Sequence record: OZ346158.1 | Strand: one strand, 5' to 3' | Length of the DNA stretch: 64,000 nucleotides | Source: a phage | Shown: positions 52,044 through 61,601 of the stretch, one piece after another | Numbering within the stretch: position 1 is the stretch's first letter | How the letters are laid out: every line of letters starts with the position of its first letter | The notes under the pieces: model-generated | Told to the model about the DNA's origin: nothing | Database searches by the model: none | The model's input: the letters and a program-made list of their open reading frames with translations, nothing else | Translations under genes and position numbers: made by a program

Positions 52044-53327
52044 TCATTCCAGCACCTCCCAAGTGTCTGGGTTAACATTTCGGACGCAGATACCGACAGG
52101 GAATTGGTAGTTGTTGTCTTCTGTCCTTGCTTGATATTTGAAGGTGACAAACTTGCCGATCATTTCCTGCATCCTGTCATAGCTACGCTCCTCGTGCGTG
52201 CCTTTCATCTTCATTTTAACAATAACACCTTCCTTGTCAACACAGATAAGAACACCTTCATCATTCTTATCTTTCTCAACGTCAATAACTTTCACCTCTG
52301 CGTCGTTGAACTTTTTCCATTTCAATGCTTCAGATGTTCGCTGACCGTACTCGTATTTACCGCAGAAATTACGCATGATAGTACCTTCATATCCTTCGGA
52401 CATGAATATACCAACAGATTCTTCGCAATGATCAACTGTGTACGCAAGCTCTGCGTCAACAACCTTGATATGGTCAAGCATCAGAGTGGTAACGGTATCC
52501 TCTGCATCCATAAGATCCTTGCAGCGTCCAGACTCTGTTTCTGGATCCCACCACACCTTGTCGCTAGGAATATCAAAAATGTGATACTCCAGATCGTAGC
52601 TACAGTACCCACCGTAACGCAAATCATCACGAACAGGCTCAACATCGACAGGAATATCTACCTTGTTGAAGTTTTTGTATGTTGATAAGCCTGCCTTAAT
52701 TGCTGCATGACGGCGTTTTTTATCTGCCTCATAGTCTTTATCGATCTCGGCCTGAATCTCTTCCTGTGTGCGCCACCGTTTAGCAAGAGACACTATTTTC
52801 TGCAAAGGAAGACCATGAATGTATAGTTCCCCATCAAGTTGTTTAATCCCAGTGGTAGAATGGAAAGAACGAAGTTGCTCTAAAAGCTTTCCTTGAATAG
52901 GGTAGGACTTATTACCACGGGAAATAAATTTAGGCTCACCATTTTGGAAAACAACAAGCAGACGAAGGCCATCTAACTTACGCAAGATCCAGCAAGGTAA
53001 TTTAAGTGCCTTGCCACGCTTCAGGTAGTCATGCACCAGCATGGGTAAAAGATCAACACCCTGCTCGCAATCTTCCATGTTTTCAACATACCCCAGACGG
53101 ACTTGTTTTTCCCACTTGCTGATAGCCTCAAGCTCGGCCTGTTGCTCAGCTGTAGTCTCGTTGGCACGACCTACGTTCTTAGGTGTGCATACCGTCTCTT
53201 TGTACTGCAGTTTACCATCAAGCTTGCCAAACTCTACGATAACCTTATCACCATCCGTGAATACTTTCCACTGTTGGTAGCTGCCATCTTTATTCAGTGC
53301 GTACAGTGTTGTTTTGATCTGATGCAT
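52044..53327 (-). CDS. DNA ligase (nucleotidyltransferase motifs I/IV/V)
   Basis: Motif I KLDGLR, motif IV EGTIMR, motif V LKWKKF. Confidence 0.7.
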   Translation of the reverse strand: MHQIKTTLYALNKDGSYQQWKVFTDGDKVIVEFGKLDGKLQYKETVCTPKNVGRANETTAEQQAELEAISKWEKQVRLGYVENMEDCEQGVDLLPMLVHDYLKRGKALKLPCWILRKLDGLRLLVVFQNGEPKFISRGNKSYPIQGKLLEQLRSFHSTTGIKQLDGELYIHGLPLQKIVSLAKRWRTQEEIQAEIDKDYEADKKRRHAAIKAGLSTYKNFNKVDIPVDVEPVRDDLRYGGYCSYDLEYHIFDIPSDKVWWDPETESGRCKDLMDAEDTVTTLMLDHIKVVDAELAYTVDHCEESVGIFMSEGYEGTIMRNFCGKYEYGQRTSEALKWKKFNDAEVKVIDVEKDKNDEGVLICVDKEGVIVKMKMKGTHEERSYDRMQEMIGKFVTFKYQARTEDNNYQFPVGICVRNVNPDTWEVLE

Positions 53328-54680: not shown

Positions 54681-55442
54681 TTAAAGTTCCATAAAGTTTT
54701 CTACAGTTTCAATAAATGCTTTATCAGAGAAAGCGTCAACAGCACCGTTAAACCATACAGGGATCCCGCGATCCTCATATTGATAAAGGTCGCTACGTGA
54801 AATGCCACTTCCATCTGCACTCTGCGAATCATACTTGTTTACAATCAGCAGTTTTGTGCCTTTACAAGTAGCAGGAAACAATTCCCAGTTAAAATTAATA
54901 ACTGTGTTAGAACAACCTACCAGGATCACCATATCATTGCTTGTGAGAGATGTCAACAGGTCATACATGTCTGTATACTTAGGAGCAACCTCACCGAAGA
55001 ACACTACATTGGGCTTAACCCAGGTATACTTGCCTGTATCTACCTCCGTGTATCCGATATTTTTAATTACATCATTACCTTCAGCATCTTCGTAGGTGAT
55101 TTCAGGCAAATACCCGTGGACATGTAAAATATCTTCATGTTTTACACCAGCACGCTCCAGCAAATCATCTACATTGGTAGTAAGGTTGATCACACGACCA
55201 GACCAGCGGGAATACCACTCAGCGATCCGAAGATGTGCAAGGTTAGGATCAACACTGCCCAGAGCTACACGACGTGCATTGTAAAAGTCATGCACCTTAT
55301 AGTAGTTCTTGGCAAAGGTGTGGATGTTGCACACCTCATCGATGCTGAAATTCTCCCACATTGCAGTGCTACCAGATCGGAAAGTGGGAATACCAGATTC
55401 AGCGCTCAAACCAGCACCGGAGATAATAATCAGTCGTCGCAT
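54681..55442 (-). CDS. Sir2-family NAD-dependent deacylase / ADP-ribosyltransferase
   Basis: GAGLSAESGIPTFR, TTNVDDLLERAG, catalytic HVHG, PNVVFFGE; no obvious zinc-ribbon cysteines. Confidence 0.8.
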   Translation of the reverse strand: MRRLIIISGAGLSAESGIPTFRSGSTAMWENFSIDEVCNIHTFAKNYYKVHDFYNARRVALGSVDPNLAHLRIAEWYSRWSGRVINLTTNVDDLLERAGVKHEDILHVHGYLPEITYEDAEGNDVIKNIGYTEVDTGKYTWVKPNVVFFGEVAPKYTDMYDLLTSLTSNDMVILVGCSNTVINFNWELFPATCKGTKLLIVNKYDSQSADGSGISRSDLYQYEDRGIPVWFNGAVDAFSDKAFIETVENFMEL

Positions 55443-55450
55443 AAGTGTCC

Positions 55451-55801
55451 TCAGTAGATGTTTTGTTTAATCTCTATTCCAAACTTCTTGAATGAGTCAG
55501 CAGCAAGCATAAATTTACGAGCTGCCGATGGATTAGAAGTATGCACGAAAATAATCACGTTGTCAATAAGTGGTGGCTTTCCGAATACAAGTTTCTCCTC
55601 TAGCGCAGAGAAGCAGTCGTACCCTTCAAGCACTTCACCTAGATCATTGTCAAAATGCCACTCAGAAACGCGCCTGTAGAGCTTTCTATTATCGTTAATA
55701 AAATCCATGAACTCAGAAGAGTTCTTCAGCCAAAGAGCATCTTGGATTCCGTAATTTGACGGATCTCTCAAGTCATCTAGCCACACAATCAACTTCTTCA
55801 T
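55451..55801 (-). CDS. hypothetical protein
   Basis: ORF; start MKKLIVW overlaps upstream stop. Confidence 0.5.
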   Translation of the reverse strand: MKKLIVWLDDLRDPSNYGIQDALWLKNSSEFMDFINDNRKLYRRVSEWHFDNDLGEVLEGYDCFSALEEKLVFGKPPLIDNVIIFVHTSNPSAARKFMLAADSFKKFGIEIKQNIY

Positions 55802-56733
55802 TGCATATAGTCCTCGTTGTGAAAATAGCAATCAAGTATCTCACGGCGTTCCTGCTCCAGGAGGCAGTTCCACACATCTTCTGTGTAATTGCTACGAATG
55901 AAGTTTACCATGCCATAAAACTCTTCGTCAATACGTTTAAAGATATCATCATCCCAAATCTTCCAAGCTTTACCCCTCATTACGGCCTTCCGTGCCAAAT
56001 AGTATGGAGACTTGATCTTCAGCTGCAGGTCATAAGGGTAGTAAGGCTTACGGATCATATACCCTTCGCCCCTTGTTTCTGCAGCTAATTCTTTTGCATA
56101 GCTGAACGGGATTTCACGCAAAGTGTGAGGACGTTTTGCACCAAGGTATTTGGCAATCCCATCTAAAGCTGCTTCTGGTAGCATTATTCCAGAATCATTA
56201 TATCTGCAACCTATCAAATATGCGCCATGGTCTTCTTGAACAATATGCGGATCTGAAGGGTGACAAATTTCAAACATGAATGTCATGTTTTCATTGCCCA
56301 TAACCTTCTTGATAAGATCTAAATTACCACATTGCTCTTGGATGGTTTCCTTTGCAAGGTTACAATATGGAGAATCAAGAGACCCGGTTGTTGAGAACAA
56401 TAGGTCACCTTTATGAGATGATACCACACCAAGGAATCCGTTCTTTTTCTCTACCGCAGTCACAAGCTTATTGTCAGGCAGGTTGGTGGAGTTTTCTCCC
56501 AAGTTAAACACTTTTGTGAAGGGCCATGCCACAACATTTCCTTCATTACCTACAACAATGCCTCGGCACTCCAGTAAACGAGGGGACAAATGCCATAAAT
56601 TGTTGTAAAATACTTTTCTAGCATATTTATAGATCTTTAACCCGAGATCTGGGTAATACCTACTGGTTACAAGACCTTTGTCAACTAGGTCGTCTGCATT
56701 AAAATACTTCATCATACGTTCCTCATTTGTCAT
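55798..56733 (-). CDS. RNA ligase-like nucleotidyltransferase
   Basis: Motif I VEKKNGFLG (Kx[DN]G), motif IV GEGYMIRKP, motif V LQLKIKSP; divergently adjacent to kinase/phosphoesterase pair. Confidence 0.6.
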   Translation of the reverse strand: MTNEERMMKYFNADDLVDKGLVTSRYYPDLGLKIYKYARKVFYNNLWHLSPRLLECRGIVVGNEGNVVAWPFTKVFNLGENSTNLPDNKLVTAVEKKNGFLGVVSSHKGDLLFSTTGSLDSPYCNLAKETIQEQCGNLDLIKKVMGNENMTFMFEICHPSDPHIVQEDHGAYLIGCRYNDSGIMLPEAALDGIAKYLGAKRPHTLREIPFSYAKELAAETRGEGYMIRKPYYPYDLQLKIKSPYYLARKAVMRGKAWKIWDDDIFKRIDEEFYGMVNFIRSNYTEDVWNCLLEQERREILDCYFHNEDYMQ

Positions 56734-56833
56734 TTTGTCAGTCTATCCTGCCACACAAATAACCTAGTGTCAACACTTGAAATTAACAAAACAGTTAGAT
56801 ATACTATCGTTGAAATTAAAACGGAGGGTCACT

Positions 56834-57244
56834 ATGTCTAAAATGCTATATATCGTGCGTGGTCTACCAGGGTCTGGCAAATCAACACTGGCAAATGCGC
56901 TATCTTTAGAGGGTCTGTATCCACATTTTGAGAACGACATGTTCTGGTATGACGATGACGGCAATTACAACTGGGATGCAAGTAAAGTAACACTCGCAGC
57001 GAAATGGTGCAAAGATAACGTAGAAGATATGATGCGTATGGGATACGACCGTATCGTGGTAAGTAATACGTTTACAAAAGAAAAACATGTGCAGGAATAT
57101 GTTGACATGGCAATCAGTCATGGGTATAGTTATACCGTGATCGTGGTTGAAAACCGCCACGGTAATAAAAGCATTCATGATGTTCCAGACAAGGTTGTGG
57201 ATCGTATGGAACGCCAGCTTAAAAACTGCATTAAACTTAAATGA
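56834..57244 (+). CDS. P-loop kinase, polynucleotide 5'-kinase-like
   Basis: YIVRGLPGSGKSTLA resembles T4 Pnk kinase P-loop; SD aacggagggtcact. Confidence 0.6.
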   Translation: MSKMLYIVRGLPGSGKSTLANALSLEGLYPHFENDMFWYDDDGNYNWDASKVTLAAKWCKDNVEDMMRMGYDRIVVSNTFTKEKHVQEYVDMAISHGYSYTVIVVENRHGNKSIHDVPDKVVDRMERQLKNCIKLK

Positions 57245-57251
57245 GGAATGT

Positions 57252-57806
57252 ATGAAATACTTTGTAACAAGCGACACACACTTTCTCCACCAGCGGGTCA
57301 TGGAGTTTGATTCATGTCAAAAACACAGATCTCAGTATGATCACAATCTTGACAGTATGAATGCGGGAATCATCGCCGAATGGAACTCTGTTGTGTCACC
57401 TGCAGACACTGTGTTCCACTTGGGAGATATTGCGTGCACTAATGATAAGAATATCAACAACTTACTTCCAGATATTCTAAATATGTTGAACGGACATATT
57501 ATTCTTGTTCGTGGCAACCATGACACACGGACGACTGTCAGAATTATGAAAGAGTTCGGTCATGAGGTTGTAGATTATTACGAGCTTCGCCACAACAAGA
57601 ATTTGATCTGTATGAGCCATTACCAATTTGCAAAGTGGAACAGAAAGCCTCACGGATCAGTCCAACTGTTCGGTCATGCTCACGGAACCACACAACAGTT
57701 GTTTGGCAGGCAGCTTGATGTCGGTTGGGATGTGTGGGGGAGACTCTTACCATTAGAAGAGGCATACCGTATTGCAATGAGTCTTGCTATTGACAGCGGG
57801 GAGTAA
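57252..57806 (+). CDS. calcineurin-like metallophosphoesterase
   Basis: DTHF, GDI, GNHD, GHAH metal-binding motifs in order. Confidence 0.75.
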   Translation: MKYFVTSDTHFLHQRVMEFDSCQKHRSQYDHNLDSMNAGIIAEWNSVVSPADTVFHLGDIACTNDKNINNLLPDILNMLNGHIILVRGNHDTRTTVRIMKEFGHEVVDYYELRHNKNLICMSHYQFAKWNRKPHGSVQLFGHAHGTTQQLFGRQLDVGWDVWGRLLPLEEAYRIAMSLAIDSGE

Positions 57807-60646: not shown

Positions 60647-60742
60647 AATATTTTCTTGACAAACTTTGCTTAACAGTGTAATATTGTAAACATGGTCTCC
60701 CACCTTTTCTGGCGGCTAAGGTGTAAAAGAAAGCCACCCAGT

Positions 60743-60817
60743 GCCCTGTTAGCTTAGTGGATAAAGCAGCGGCCTTCTAAGCCGTTGACACTGGTTCGAG
60801 TCCAGTACGGGGTGCCA
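60743..60817 (+). tRNA. tRNA-Arg (anticodon UCU)
   Basis: Hand-folded cloverleaf: acceptor gccctgt/acggggt, anticodon loop cuUCUaa, T-loop ttcgagt, encoded CCA. Confidence 0.85.
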
Positions 60818-60821
60818 AATT

Positions 60822-60908
60822 GGGGAGTTATCCCGTAGAGGTAGCGGTGTAGACTGTAAATCTATTGTCATTGCGACTCGGGTGGTTCGACTCCACCACT
60901 CCCCACCA
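60822..60908 (+). tRNA. tRNA-Tyr (anticodon GUA), long variable arm
   Basis: Acceptor ggggagt/actcccc, anticodon loop ctGTAaa, T-loop ttcgact, CCA. Confidence 0.85.
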
Positions 60909-61022
60909 AATTTATATTTTTAGATGCATAAATAATACAGATAATGGCATTGATATTTATCGTCGTTTATACTAGTCACTAACTGCTCGAAAATCAGTGT
61001 CATTATCAGTATAATTTATAAA

Positions 61023-61113
61023 GGAGGGTAGGGAGCAATGGTGCTCAAGCGGTCTTGAAAACCGTCCCGTTGAGGATGACTCGATGATGGTTCGATTCCA
61101 TTACTCTCCGCCA
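61023..61113 (+). tRNA. tRNA-Ser (anticodon UGA), long variable arm
   Basis: Acceptor ggagggt/actctcc, anticodon loop ctTGAaa, T-loop ttcgatt, CCA. Confidence 0.8.
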
Positions 61114-61211
61114 CATTGTTGACCTTGTAATTAAGCGAAAGCCGGAAGCAGAACCGGATTATCAAATGTTACAGTCGTCATCGCCGACTAGCAACATGGT
61201 CAACATACTGA

Positions 61212-61308
61212 GCTAGGTAAGCCCTTTGGCAAGGGCGAGGATTTTTAATCCTGAAAATAGACGAGGTAGTCGTTGAATACATAGGTGGTTCGATTCCATC
61301 ACCTAGCA
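61212..61308 (+). tRNA. atypical tRNA-like gene (possible tRNA-Lys UUU with about 30-nt variable region)
   Basis: Perfect 7-bp acceptor gctaggt/acctagc, D-arm gccc..gggc, T-loop ttcgatt; anticodon arm imperfect; 97 nt. Confidence 0.4.
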
Positions 61309-61315
61309 CCTTTTT

Positions 61316-61388
61316 GCTGATGTAGCACAATCGGTAGTGCAATTGATTTGTAATCAATAGGTTGTAGGTTCAAGTCCTGCCATCAGCA
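61316..61388 (+). tRNA. tRNA-Thr (anticodon UGU)
   Basis: Acceptor gctgatg/catcagc, anticodon stem attga/tcaat, loop ttTGTaa, T-loop ttcaagt. Confidence 0.85.
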
Positions 61389-61392
61389 CCAA

Positions 61393-61467
61393 GGCCCTGT
61401 AGCTGGAAGGTTCAAGCAAGCGACTCATAATCGCCAGACGGTGGTTCAATTCCACCCAGGGCCACCA
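61393..61467 (+). tRNA. tRNA-Met/Ile2 (anticodon CAU)
   Basis: Acceptor ggccctg/cagggcc, anticodon loop ctCATaa, T-loop ttcaatt, CCA. Confidence 0.85.
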
Positions 61468-61478
61468 AATAGTAAATA

Positions 61479-61555
61479 CTCCGCGTAGCTCAGCTTGGTA
61501 GAGCGCCTGATTTGGGATCAGGAGGTCGAGTGTTCGAATCACTCCGTGGAGACCA
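61479..61555 (+). tRNA. tRNA-Pro (anticodon UGG)
   Basis: D-arm tagctcagcttggtagagc, anticodon loop ttTGGga, T-loop ttcgaat, CCA. Confidence 0.85.
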
Positions 61556-61601
61556 CTTTCAGTTATACTTTAAACATATATAAACAAAAGGAACCTTTAA
61601 A

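Follow-up and report, generated by a model that had tools for sequence, protein, structure and literature searches.

The 64,000 nucleotide stretch of phage DNA in sequence record OZ346158.1, called the window when its full length is meant, carries within its transfer RNA (tRNA) cluster a 97-nucleotide element. This is a real gene, conserved in evolution, for a tRNA-shaped RNA of Escherichia phage V5 (rV5) and its relatives. The element occupies positions 61212 to 61308 of the plus strand, counted through the discriminator base A73, and region 60700–61600 around it is 100% identical to rV5 (NC_011041) and likewise to many other Vequintavirus genomes. A first, sequence-only reading had placed a gene with a perfect 7 base pair (bp) acceptor stem, a D-arm, and a canonical T-arm at this site, and position, strand, and all three structures were borne out exactly. 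It had further described an imperfect anticodon stem and a variable region of roughly 30 nucleotides (nt); a G/G opposition and a UUUUUAA loop are indeed found when the hairpin is read with 4 bp, and the variable region measures 30 nt with a 5-bp hairpin inside. Three options had been offered, a pseudo-tRNA, a tRNA with an insertion, and a tRNA-like decoy, and among these the decoy appears to be the best-fitting. On the plus strand the layout of the element is GCTAGGT AA GCCC TTTGGCAA GGGC G AGGATTTTTAATCCT G AAAATA GACGA GGTAG TCGTT GAATACATA GGTGG TTCGATT CCATC ACCTAGC A. It is followed by CC (61309–61310) and then by a U, so that CCA is only partly encoded in rV5.

A conserved family of tRNA-shaped RNAs

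By BLAST, by motif scans of IMG/VR and of metagenomes, and with the covariance model R1, 33 distinct homologues were recovered. The phages which carry them belong to Vequintavirus, Avunavirus, Seunavirus, Mydovirus, and Henunavirus in the Vequintavirinae and to Justusliebigvirus in the Stephanstirmvirinae, for example phage PaulScherrer, and several are uncultured. R1 scored the family members with 67–124 bits, the rV5 element with 106.3 bits, and the next best sequences, ordinary class II tRNAs, with at most 28 bits; the family is discrete. Full-length matches occur in about 200 phage genome records (120 of the rV5 type, 62 of the Seunavirus/Mydovirus type, and 35 of the Stephanstirmvirinae type). 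An exact 22-nt motif of the family, searched as that exact pattern alone in one genome per species of 185,579 bacterial and archaeal species, gave zero matches. BLAST with the element found no match in the complete genomes of Escherichia coli, and an origin as the copy of a host gene was rejected. The pattern GCYATCAAAGCNNGAAAA proved to be too unspecific for IMG/VR, the new loci among the matches listed all being without a T-arm.

Selection on the fold is evident from the alignment of the 33 sequences, where 98.6% of the pair cells are standard and 14 of the 21 cloverleaf pairs have changed on both sides, as compared to 31–45% of cells pairing in a control in which the 3' partners were slid by one to three columns. 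RNAalifold gives the cloverleaf independently, and the minimum free energy (MFE) fold of the rV5 element is a cloverleaf as well (−34.2 kcal/mol, z = −4.1 versus shuffles). The tertiary pair G19:C56 is exchanged for U19:A56 in 11 of the 33 sequences with zero mixed cases, and this covariation is strong evidence for the L-shape of a tRNA with its elbow. Every stem is supported by covariation, and the structure goes well beyond chance. Compensatory changes in every one of the four stems and in the extra hairpin, the presence of this hairpin in almost all members in spite of sequences which are unrelated from genus to genus, and the covarying tertiary pair rule out a decaying pseudogene and contradict the pseudo-tRNA option. 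Some Vequintavirus isolates have the element absent or chimeric, and the reference rV5 record and paper leave it unannotated. These points would speak for a tRNA gene in decay, or for a fold which resembles a tRNA by chance and has no function, but such a reading is extremely improbable in view of the recurrence of compensatory changes in two phage subfamilies, the invariant single-stranded linkers, and the z-score of the fold. The option of a tRNA with an insertion is too simple, as the long variable region with its conserved linkers, the D-arm resembling that of selenocysteine tRNA (tRNA-Sec), and the short anticodon arm are ancestral features which the family has in both phage subfamilies, and do not stem from a recent insertion into a tRNA-Lys.

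Two phages, V18 and O157 typing phage 4, have lost the element through chimeras with tRNA-Tyr. V18 (locus L196, 651–747) has the 5' part of tRNA-Tyr joined to the 3' part of the element, its deletion covering the 3' half of tRNA-Tyr, tRNA-Ser, the spacer, and the 5' half of the element, while typing phage 4 (locus L197, about 640–728) has a Tyr-like gene which ends in the 3' acceptor strand of the element. These chimeras suggest recombination between tRNA genes with long arms. The two losses indicate that the element is accessory and not essential, and they are what one would expect of an accessory gene related to conflict. Some 18 GenBank records under the name "Campylobacter phage" (MG0656xx series) match rV5 over the tRNA cluster with 99–100% identity and are probably mislabeled or contaminating E. 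coli phages.

Annotation of the element is inconsistent. ARAGORN reports it at 61212–61310 as "tRNA-???" with a four-base anticodon (atcc) and makes no Lys call. The Rfam tRNA model RF00005 aligns to 61212–61308 with 35.5 bits, above its gathering threshold of 29 bits and the lowest score in the cluster; in this alignment position 26 is deleted, the first anticodon-stem pair is non-standard, and 26 nt are inserted in the variable region. The annotation of the BASEL phages, which is based on tRNAscan-SE, has a 97-nt "tRNA-Lys" with the same boundaries as the element. GenBank labels vary between none, tRNA-Lys (BASEL phages), tRNA-OTHER, tRNA-TERM, and tRNA-???(atcc), and the reference rV5 record leaves the element without annotation. 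The rV5 genome paper gives six tRNAs, the element not among them (PMC3606486), and no description of it was found in the literature on rV5, on the Vequintavirinae, or on tRNA-like, suppressor, and decoy tRNAs. The sequence-only reading had named as a refutation a standard tRNA called by gene finders with different boundaries; this refutation failed, since the boundaries called are those of the element and there is no agreement on a standard tRNA. The parts of the element are listed in Table 1 together with the neighboring genes discussed further below.

Table 1. Parts of the rV5 element, the tRNA cluster, and the putative RNA repair genes, with positions in the window
Feature	Position	Strand	Remarks
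Acceptor stem, 5' strand GCUAGGU	61212–61218	+	7/7 Watson-Crick pairs with 61301–61307; 5/7 pairs with compensatory changes in the family
D-arm GCCC-UUUGGCAA-GGGC, with G18G19	61221–61236	+	3/4 core pairs covary
Anticodon-like hairpin G / AGGA-UUUUUAA-UCCU / G (AGGAUUUUUAAUCCU between the Gs)	61237–61253	+	17 nt
5' linker AAAAUA	61254–61259	+	G-AAAA invariant, 33/33 members
Extra (variable-arm) hairpin GACGA-GGUAG-UCGUU	61260–61274	+	Near-universal hairpin; sequence unrelated between genera
3' linker GAAUACAUA	61275–61283	+	AUAC invariant; AAUACAUA nearly so
T-arm GGUGG-UUCGAUU-CCAUC, C56 with G19	61284–61300	+	3/5 pairs covary
Acceptor stem, 3' strand ACCUAGC, and discriminator A73	61301–61308	+	Family pairing
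tRNA cluster	60743–61555	+	Arg-UCU, Tyr-GUA, Ser-UGA, element, Thr-UGU, CAU (Met/Ile2), Pro-UGG
Rnl1-family RNA ligase, putative	55798–56733	−	Pfam RNA_lig_T4_1, E=1.4e-14
Polynucleotide-kinase-like P-loop protein, putative	56777–57244	+	Pfam AAA_33
Metallophosphoesterase, putative	57147–57806	+	Pfam Metallophos

Shared architecture and comparison with known tRNAs

All members of the family have in common a 7/5 acceptor/T domain, A8/U14 replacing U8/A14, and, as invariant elements, the G/G opposition on which the anticodon hairpin is based, the G-AAAA of the 5' linker, and the AUAC of the 3' linker, which is usually part of AAUACAUA. In rV5 the D-arm is preceded by A8 and A9, U8 being absent, and can be extended to 6 bp with a 4-nt UGGC loop in the style of tRNA-Sec. 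The RNAalifold consensus of the 33 sequences likewise has a 6-bp D stem with U14:A21 and U15:A20 invariant; as these two added pairs never vary, they are outside the reach of the covariation test. Between the invariant Gs the anticodon hairpin has 15–16 nt in all 33 members and thus 17–18 nt with them, which is 1-2 nt below the arm of any working tRNA, 19 nt being found in canonical tRNA (26 + 5 + 7 + 5 + 44) and in tRNA-Sec (6 + 7 + 6); the rV5 copy has 17. An anticodon arm with a 5-bp stem and a 7-nt loop has been called near-universal in a review (PMC7609411), and the rV5 hairpin does not provide N26, a 5-bp stem, and a 7-nt loop with U33 together. Besides the reading with 4 bp it can be read as 5 bp closed by UUUUA or as 6 bp closed by UUU.

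The anticodon hairpins fall into types which follow the phage lineages. Type 1, in Vequintavirus including rV5, reads AGGA-UUUUUAA-UCCU, and type 2, in Avunavirus, AGGA-UUUAUAA-UCCU. Type 3, in Seunavirus and Mydovirus, reads AGGUC-CAUCCA-GACCU with the loop variants CAGCCA, CUUCCA, CCGCCA, and CCUCCA, and type 4, in Henunavirus, Justusliebigvirus, and uncultured phages, GGGC-CAUCAAA-GCCC. In most family members U33 is absent or the loop does not have 7 nt: type 4 has A33 in place of U33, and the loop of type 3 has 6 or 8 nt. The type-3 homologues get no ARAGORN call and no hit with the Rfam tRNA model at E<=0.01. Since type 4 is near-constant over the deepest divergences, the CAUCAAA loop is probably ancestral and the U-rich loop of rV5 derived. 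As discriminator base Vequintavirus alone has A, Avunavirus has U or C, and the remaining groups have U; U73-CCA is encoded in 23 of the 33 members. A pseudoknot of the anticodon loop with the D-loop or with the linkers was dropped from consideration, as the pairing is not conserved across the loop types. In the extra arm a loop motif, GAAYUAACAGUA, recurs on differing stems in Mydovirus (KPP-1 type), Henunavirus, and uncultured members (L019, L022, L027, L031, L033, L042, L056, and L058).

Taken as a whole, the element is partly like class II tRNAs and partly like tRNA-Sec, but lacks a defining feature of each. With class II elongator tRNAs (RF00005) it shares the 7-bp acceptor, the 5-bp T stem with a UUCGAUU T-loop, G18G19, a long stemmed extra arm, location in a tRNA operon, and, for the rV5 copy, a score over the Rfam threshold. 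It differs from them in an anticodon arm which is 1-2 nt short, in A8/U14, in a loop which varies among orthologues, and in an extra hairpin which is mounted on single-stranded linkers of 6 nt and 9 nt instead of following straight after position 45. With tRNA-Sec (RF01852), the selC* tRNA-Cys, and the allo-tRNAs it has in common a 6-bp D stem with a 4-nt loop, the lack of a free N26, and an extended extra arm; as in allo-tRNAs (PMC7609411), a single scaffold bears different "anticodons", the U73 and UCA of the type-4 relatives recall selC* tRNA-Cys(UCA), and the Rfam tRNA-Sec model aligns the D-arm of a type-4 homologue. The acceptor/T domain, however, is 7/5 in 33 of 33 members as compared to 8/5, 9/4, 8/4, or 9/3 in these RNAs, the 8/4 or 9/3 domain being that of allo-tRNAs and selC* tRNA-Cys (PMC7609411). 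The anticodon arm is shorter and not longer as in tRNA-Sec, and A33 or loops of other than 7 nt occur in the family. Where tRNA-Sec is defined by a 13-bp domain, G73, the anticodon UCA, and 47 bits or more, rV5 has 7/5, A73, and UUU, and the best relative, of type 4, reaches 43.3 bits. The known tRNA-Sec, selC* tRNA-Cys, and allo-tRNAs are cellular, whereas the element comes from virulent enterobacterial phages.

A small RNA inside a phage tRNA cluster is also seen in the rnaC and rnaD genes of T4 (species 1 and 2 RNA), and rnaC ends in a tRNA-like T-arm and acceptor, but these RNAs have 119–139 nt and a different architecture. With filters off, R1 gave rnaC 6.6 bits (E about 0.9) and rnaD nothing, and on these scores both were rejected as homologues. 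To our knowledge their function is still unknown.

The partial likeness to tRNA-Sec raises the question of recoding or suppressor tRNAs of the allo-tRNA or tRNA-Sec-derived opal type, charged whatever the anticodon. The rV5 copy would in this case place an amino acid other than lysine at AAA/AAG, and UGA would be the codon of the UCA type. Such a role is very unlikely. The CAUCAAA loop of type 4 is one base away from the tRNA-Sec loop CUUCAAA, Erwinia phage records label the type-4 copy "tRNA-TERM suppressor", the metagenomic phages with this type also have an amber-suppressor-like CUA tRNA, and allo-tRNAs do carry many anticodons on one scaffold (PMC7609411). These points are outweighed by A33 instead of U33, by a 7/5 domain in place of 8/5, 8/4, or 9/3, by a combination of U73 with C2:G71 which does not fit Ser identity, by a tRNA-Sec score under the Rfam threshold of 47, and by the harm which missense at Lys codons would do to the phage itself. 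In addition, UGA makes up 20% of the stops in the UCA-type phages as compared to 22% and 29% in the two other groups (about 60–90 open reading frames per group), and as this is no depletion an opal suppressor was rejected.

Likeness to tRNA-Lys and possible function

In the reading with a 7-nt loop the rV5 hairpin has U32 U33 UUU A37 A38, which is formally canonical. A UUU anticodon and A73 are identity elements of E. coli LysRS, and in this reading the rV5 element has both. The likeness to tRNA-Lys is nevertheless local, being found in the anticodon stem-loop alone when the sequences are compared: the hairpin core GAUUUUUAAUC is the same as G30-C40 of E. coli tRNA-Lys(UUU) in 10 of 11 positions (tRNA sequence from PMC11464382), whereas the whole element has 49 identities to this tRNA versus 45–51 to unrelated ones. 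The body is no nearer to E. coli tRNA-Lys than to unrelated tRNAs. The sequence-only reading was right to call the element unusual for tRNA-Lys. A class I tRNA-Lys body with a constant anticodon is not what the family has, its orthologues carrying UAU, NCC, and UCA.

Among the tRNAs of E. coli, tRNA-Lys(UUU) is targeted by PrrC, by the PARIS nuclease AriB, and by one bacterial Schlafen. AriB recognizes U36AAUC|A41, and its cleavage is substantially inhibited by A41C and abolished by U39A (PMC12409363). The corresponding motif of rV5 is U36AAUCC41, with a C41 like the inhibitory A41C, yet U39 and U16, which AriB requires, are kept. [quoted passage not shown] The element matches T5-type tRNA-Lys in the loop and two adjacent pairs (GA-YUUUUAA-UC, 10 of 11), in A73, and in C41 as in A41C, and both are carried by phages without other tRNA-Lys; for the rV5 tRNA cluster ARAGORN finds none. 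It differs from the T5 type in an unrelated body, in the 30-nt variable region, in the short anticodon stem, and in U39 versus the A39 of T5.

The rV5 lineage also has genes for RNA repair. Region 55798–57806, 4-5 kilobases upstream of the tRNA cluster, contains a putative T4-like RNA heal-and-seal (repair) module in which the Rnl1-family ligase gene is divergent to the AAA_33 kinase-like gene, and the BASEL annotation names its genes RNA ligase, polynucleotide kinase, and phosphoesterase. The equivalent T4 enzymes mend tRNA-Lys cut by PrrC. The nearby ligase, kinase, and phosphatase genes suggest by this analogy that the lineage is under pressure from tRNA-cutting defenses.

The reading preferred here, tentatively and with a probability somewhat short of even, is that the rV5 RNA may be a tRNA mimic which acts as bait or competitor for tRNA-Lys-directed anticodon nucleases. 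The element would be co-transcribed with its neighbors, the promoter-like sites of the cluster region being located at 60656–60684 and 60987–61015 and none immediately 5' of the element, and it would be matured by RNase P, 3' exonucleases, and the CCA-adding enzyme to a stable RNA of about 100 nt. An ordinary lysine tRNA is unlikely in view of the shortened anticodon arm and the 30-base extra arm, and the family would not serve as an ordinary decoder but would be bound by factors which recognize tRNA shape. The rV5 hairpin would imitate the anticodon stem-loop of E. coli tRNA-Lys(UUU) which is cut by PrrC, PARIS AriB, and Schlafen, and the mimic would soak up tRNA-Lys-directed nucleases alongside the Rnl1-type ligase, kinase, and phosphatase of the phage. 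A wider proposal would be an undescribed family of phage tRNA mimics in which the anticodon hairpin is a swappable bait module tuned per lineage, the rV5 copy being the tRNA-Lys(UUU) version against PrrC/PARIS/Schlafen-type nucleases. The tuning would be to the host tRNA, or to the tRNA-binding immune effector, which each phage lineage must neutralize. This wider proposal is rather improbable.

Phage tRNAs were recently shown to beat tRNA-cutting immunity, each time as working replacement tRNAs. If the mimic reading is true, a conserved tRNA-shaped RNA which apparently does not decode would represent a second phage strategy, bait rather than spare part, and the rV5 RNA imitates the anticodon stem-loop of that E. 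coli tRNA which comes under attack most frequently. It would further account for an element which annotation pipelines label inconsistently or skip in about 200 records. Several of the phages which bear the element are candidates for therapy or biocontrol.

Several points weigh against a role as nuclease bait. Mimicry by the loop covers the rV5 type only, since CAUCAAA and CAUCCA match no nameable host tRNA, and the conservation of CAUCAAA over deep divergence argues for a sequence-specific role other than an arms race. This loop and the invariant linkers G-AAAA and AUAC are left without account, which are weak points of the proposal. The match to tRNA-Lys is post hoc and on an AU-rich hairpin, and this hairpin can close as 6 bp with a UUU triloop, which is a poor mimic. 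As the rV5 loop is formally canonical (U33, UUU, A37) and is accompanied by A73, the RNA may decode.

The main rival is accordingly a working, odd tRNA-Lys(UUU), charged by LysRS via UUU and A73, which would decode AAA/AAG and would resist nucleases through C41, the G/G opposition, and the bulky extra arm, as T5 tRNA-Lys does against PARIS. It is in accordance with the canonical 7-nt loop reading U32 U33 UUU A37 A38, with A73 being confined to this genus together with UUU, with the tRNAscan-SE-based tRNA-Lys label and the Rfam tRNA score above threshold, with the T5 precedent, and with the lowered cleavage by AriB upon A41C. The rV5 cluster is also without a canonical tRNA-Lys, while relatives with other loop types have one. 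To decode, however, the RNA would have to work with an anticodon arm one layer short (N26 missing or a 4-bp stem), with A8/U14 for U8/A14, and with a 30-nt variable region foreign to tRNA-Lys on a body unrelated to it. A closed 6-bp form of the hairpin is preferred, ARAGORN makes no Lys call, the sister genus is one base off (UAU), its base 73 is U or C, its CCA is not encoded, and a canonical loop is impossible in most homologues. Clusters with Gly-like or UCA-type copies contain canonical tRNA-Gly(UCC) or tRNA-Lys(UUU) genes too, so that the element is not needed there as a decoder. A working tRNA-Lys is rather unlikely. If the element does decode with an anticodon stem of 4 bp and an extra arm of 30 nt, this would extend the limits known for the structure of decoding tRNAs.

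Another rival is a tRNA mimic with a function outside defense, for example a carrier which is charged independently of the anticodon for a non-ribosomal reaction, an RNA which regulates or sequesters a tRNA-binding enzyme of the host, or a ligand of a phage protein which reads the invariant linkers. Conservation is highest in the linkers (G-AAAA and AUAC), in the elbow, and at the acceptor end, with U73-CCA in 23 of 33 members; CAUCAAA is kept over deep divergence though it is not a canonical anticodon loop; and GAAYUAACAGUA recurs in the extra-arm loop of several genera. Pfam found no partner in the nearest open reading frames flanking the rV5 cluster, the frames to which this search applies, and the variation of the discriminator between A, U, and C argues against a single synthetase. 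Alanine identity is set by G3:U70, serine by G2:C71 with G73, histidine by G-1, and leucine by A73. No G3:U70 pair was seen, and the inspected sequences have neither G2:C71 nor G73 nor G-1. A simple charging model, whether of class II or independent of the anticodon, was rejected, the Ser, Leu, Ala, and His identity elements being absent or not conserved. A mimic with a function outside defense has a low probability.

Further observations on the tRNA region

Beside the repair module, a SIR2-family protein (54681–55442, minus strand) and an ATP-dependent DNA ligase (52044–53327, minus strand) are encoded. The 98-nt spacer between tRNA-Ser and the element (61114–61211) can be folded into a long-range closing stem UGUUGACC / GGUCAACA around three hairpins with an MFE of −25.8 kcal/mol (z = −2.6) and has no Rfam hit; a further tRNA-like RNA, structured or degenerate, may be present here. 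At 61297–61315, just before tRNA-Thr, the T-arm/acceptor helix and CACCUUUUUG were flagged as terminator-like, which is probably incidental. The CAU tRNA at 61393–61467 is annotated as tRNA-Met in most records and as tRNA-Ile (AUA-reading, lysidine type) in the BASEL and Gotham records.

In Seunavirus and Mydovirus, the tRNA directly upstream of the element, at a distance of about 80 nt, is labeled Ile(GAU), Ser, or "???" and likewise has a non-canonical anticodon loop, which lacks U33, has 6, 7, or 8 nt (ACGAUUC, ACAGAUCC, AAGAUUC, ACGAUA), and differs between close relatives. It looks like a second aberrant tRNA-like gene (loci L001–L006, L019, and L023; e.g., L001 1119–1194). Uncultured phages of the CAUCAAA type also have the amber-suppressor-like CUA tRNA mentioned above, which ARAGORN labels "Pyl" (L042 2791–2865; L033 7862–7934).

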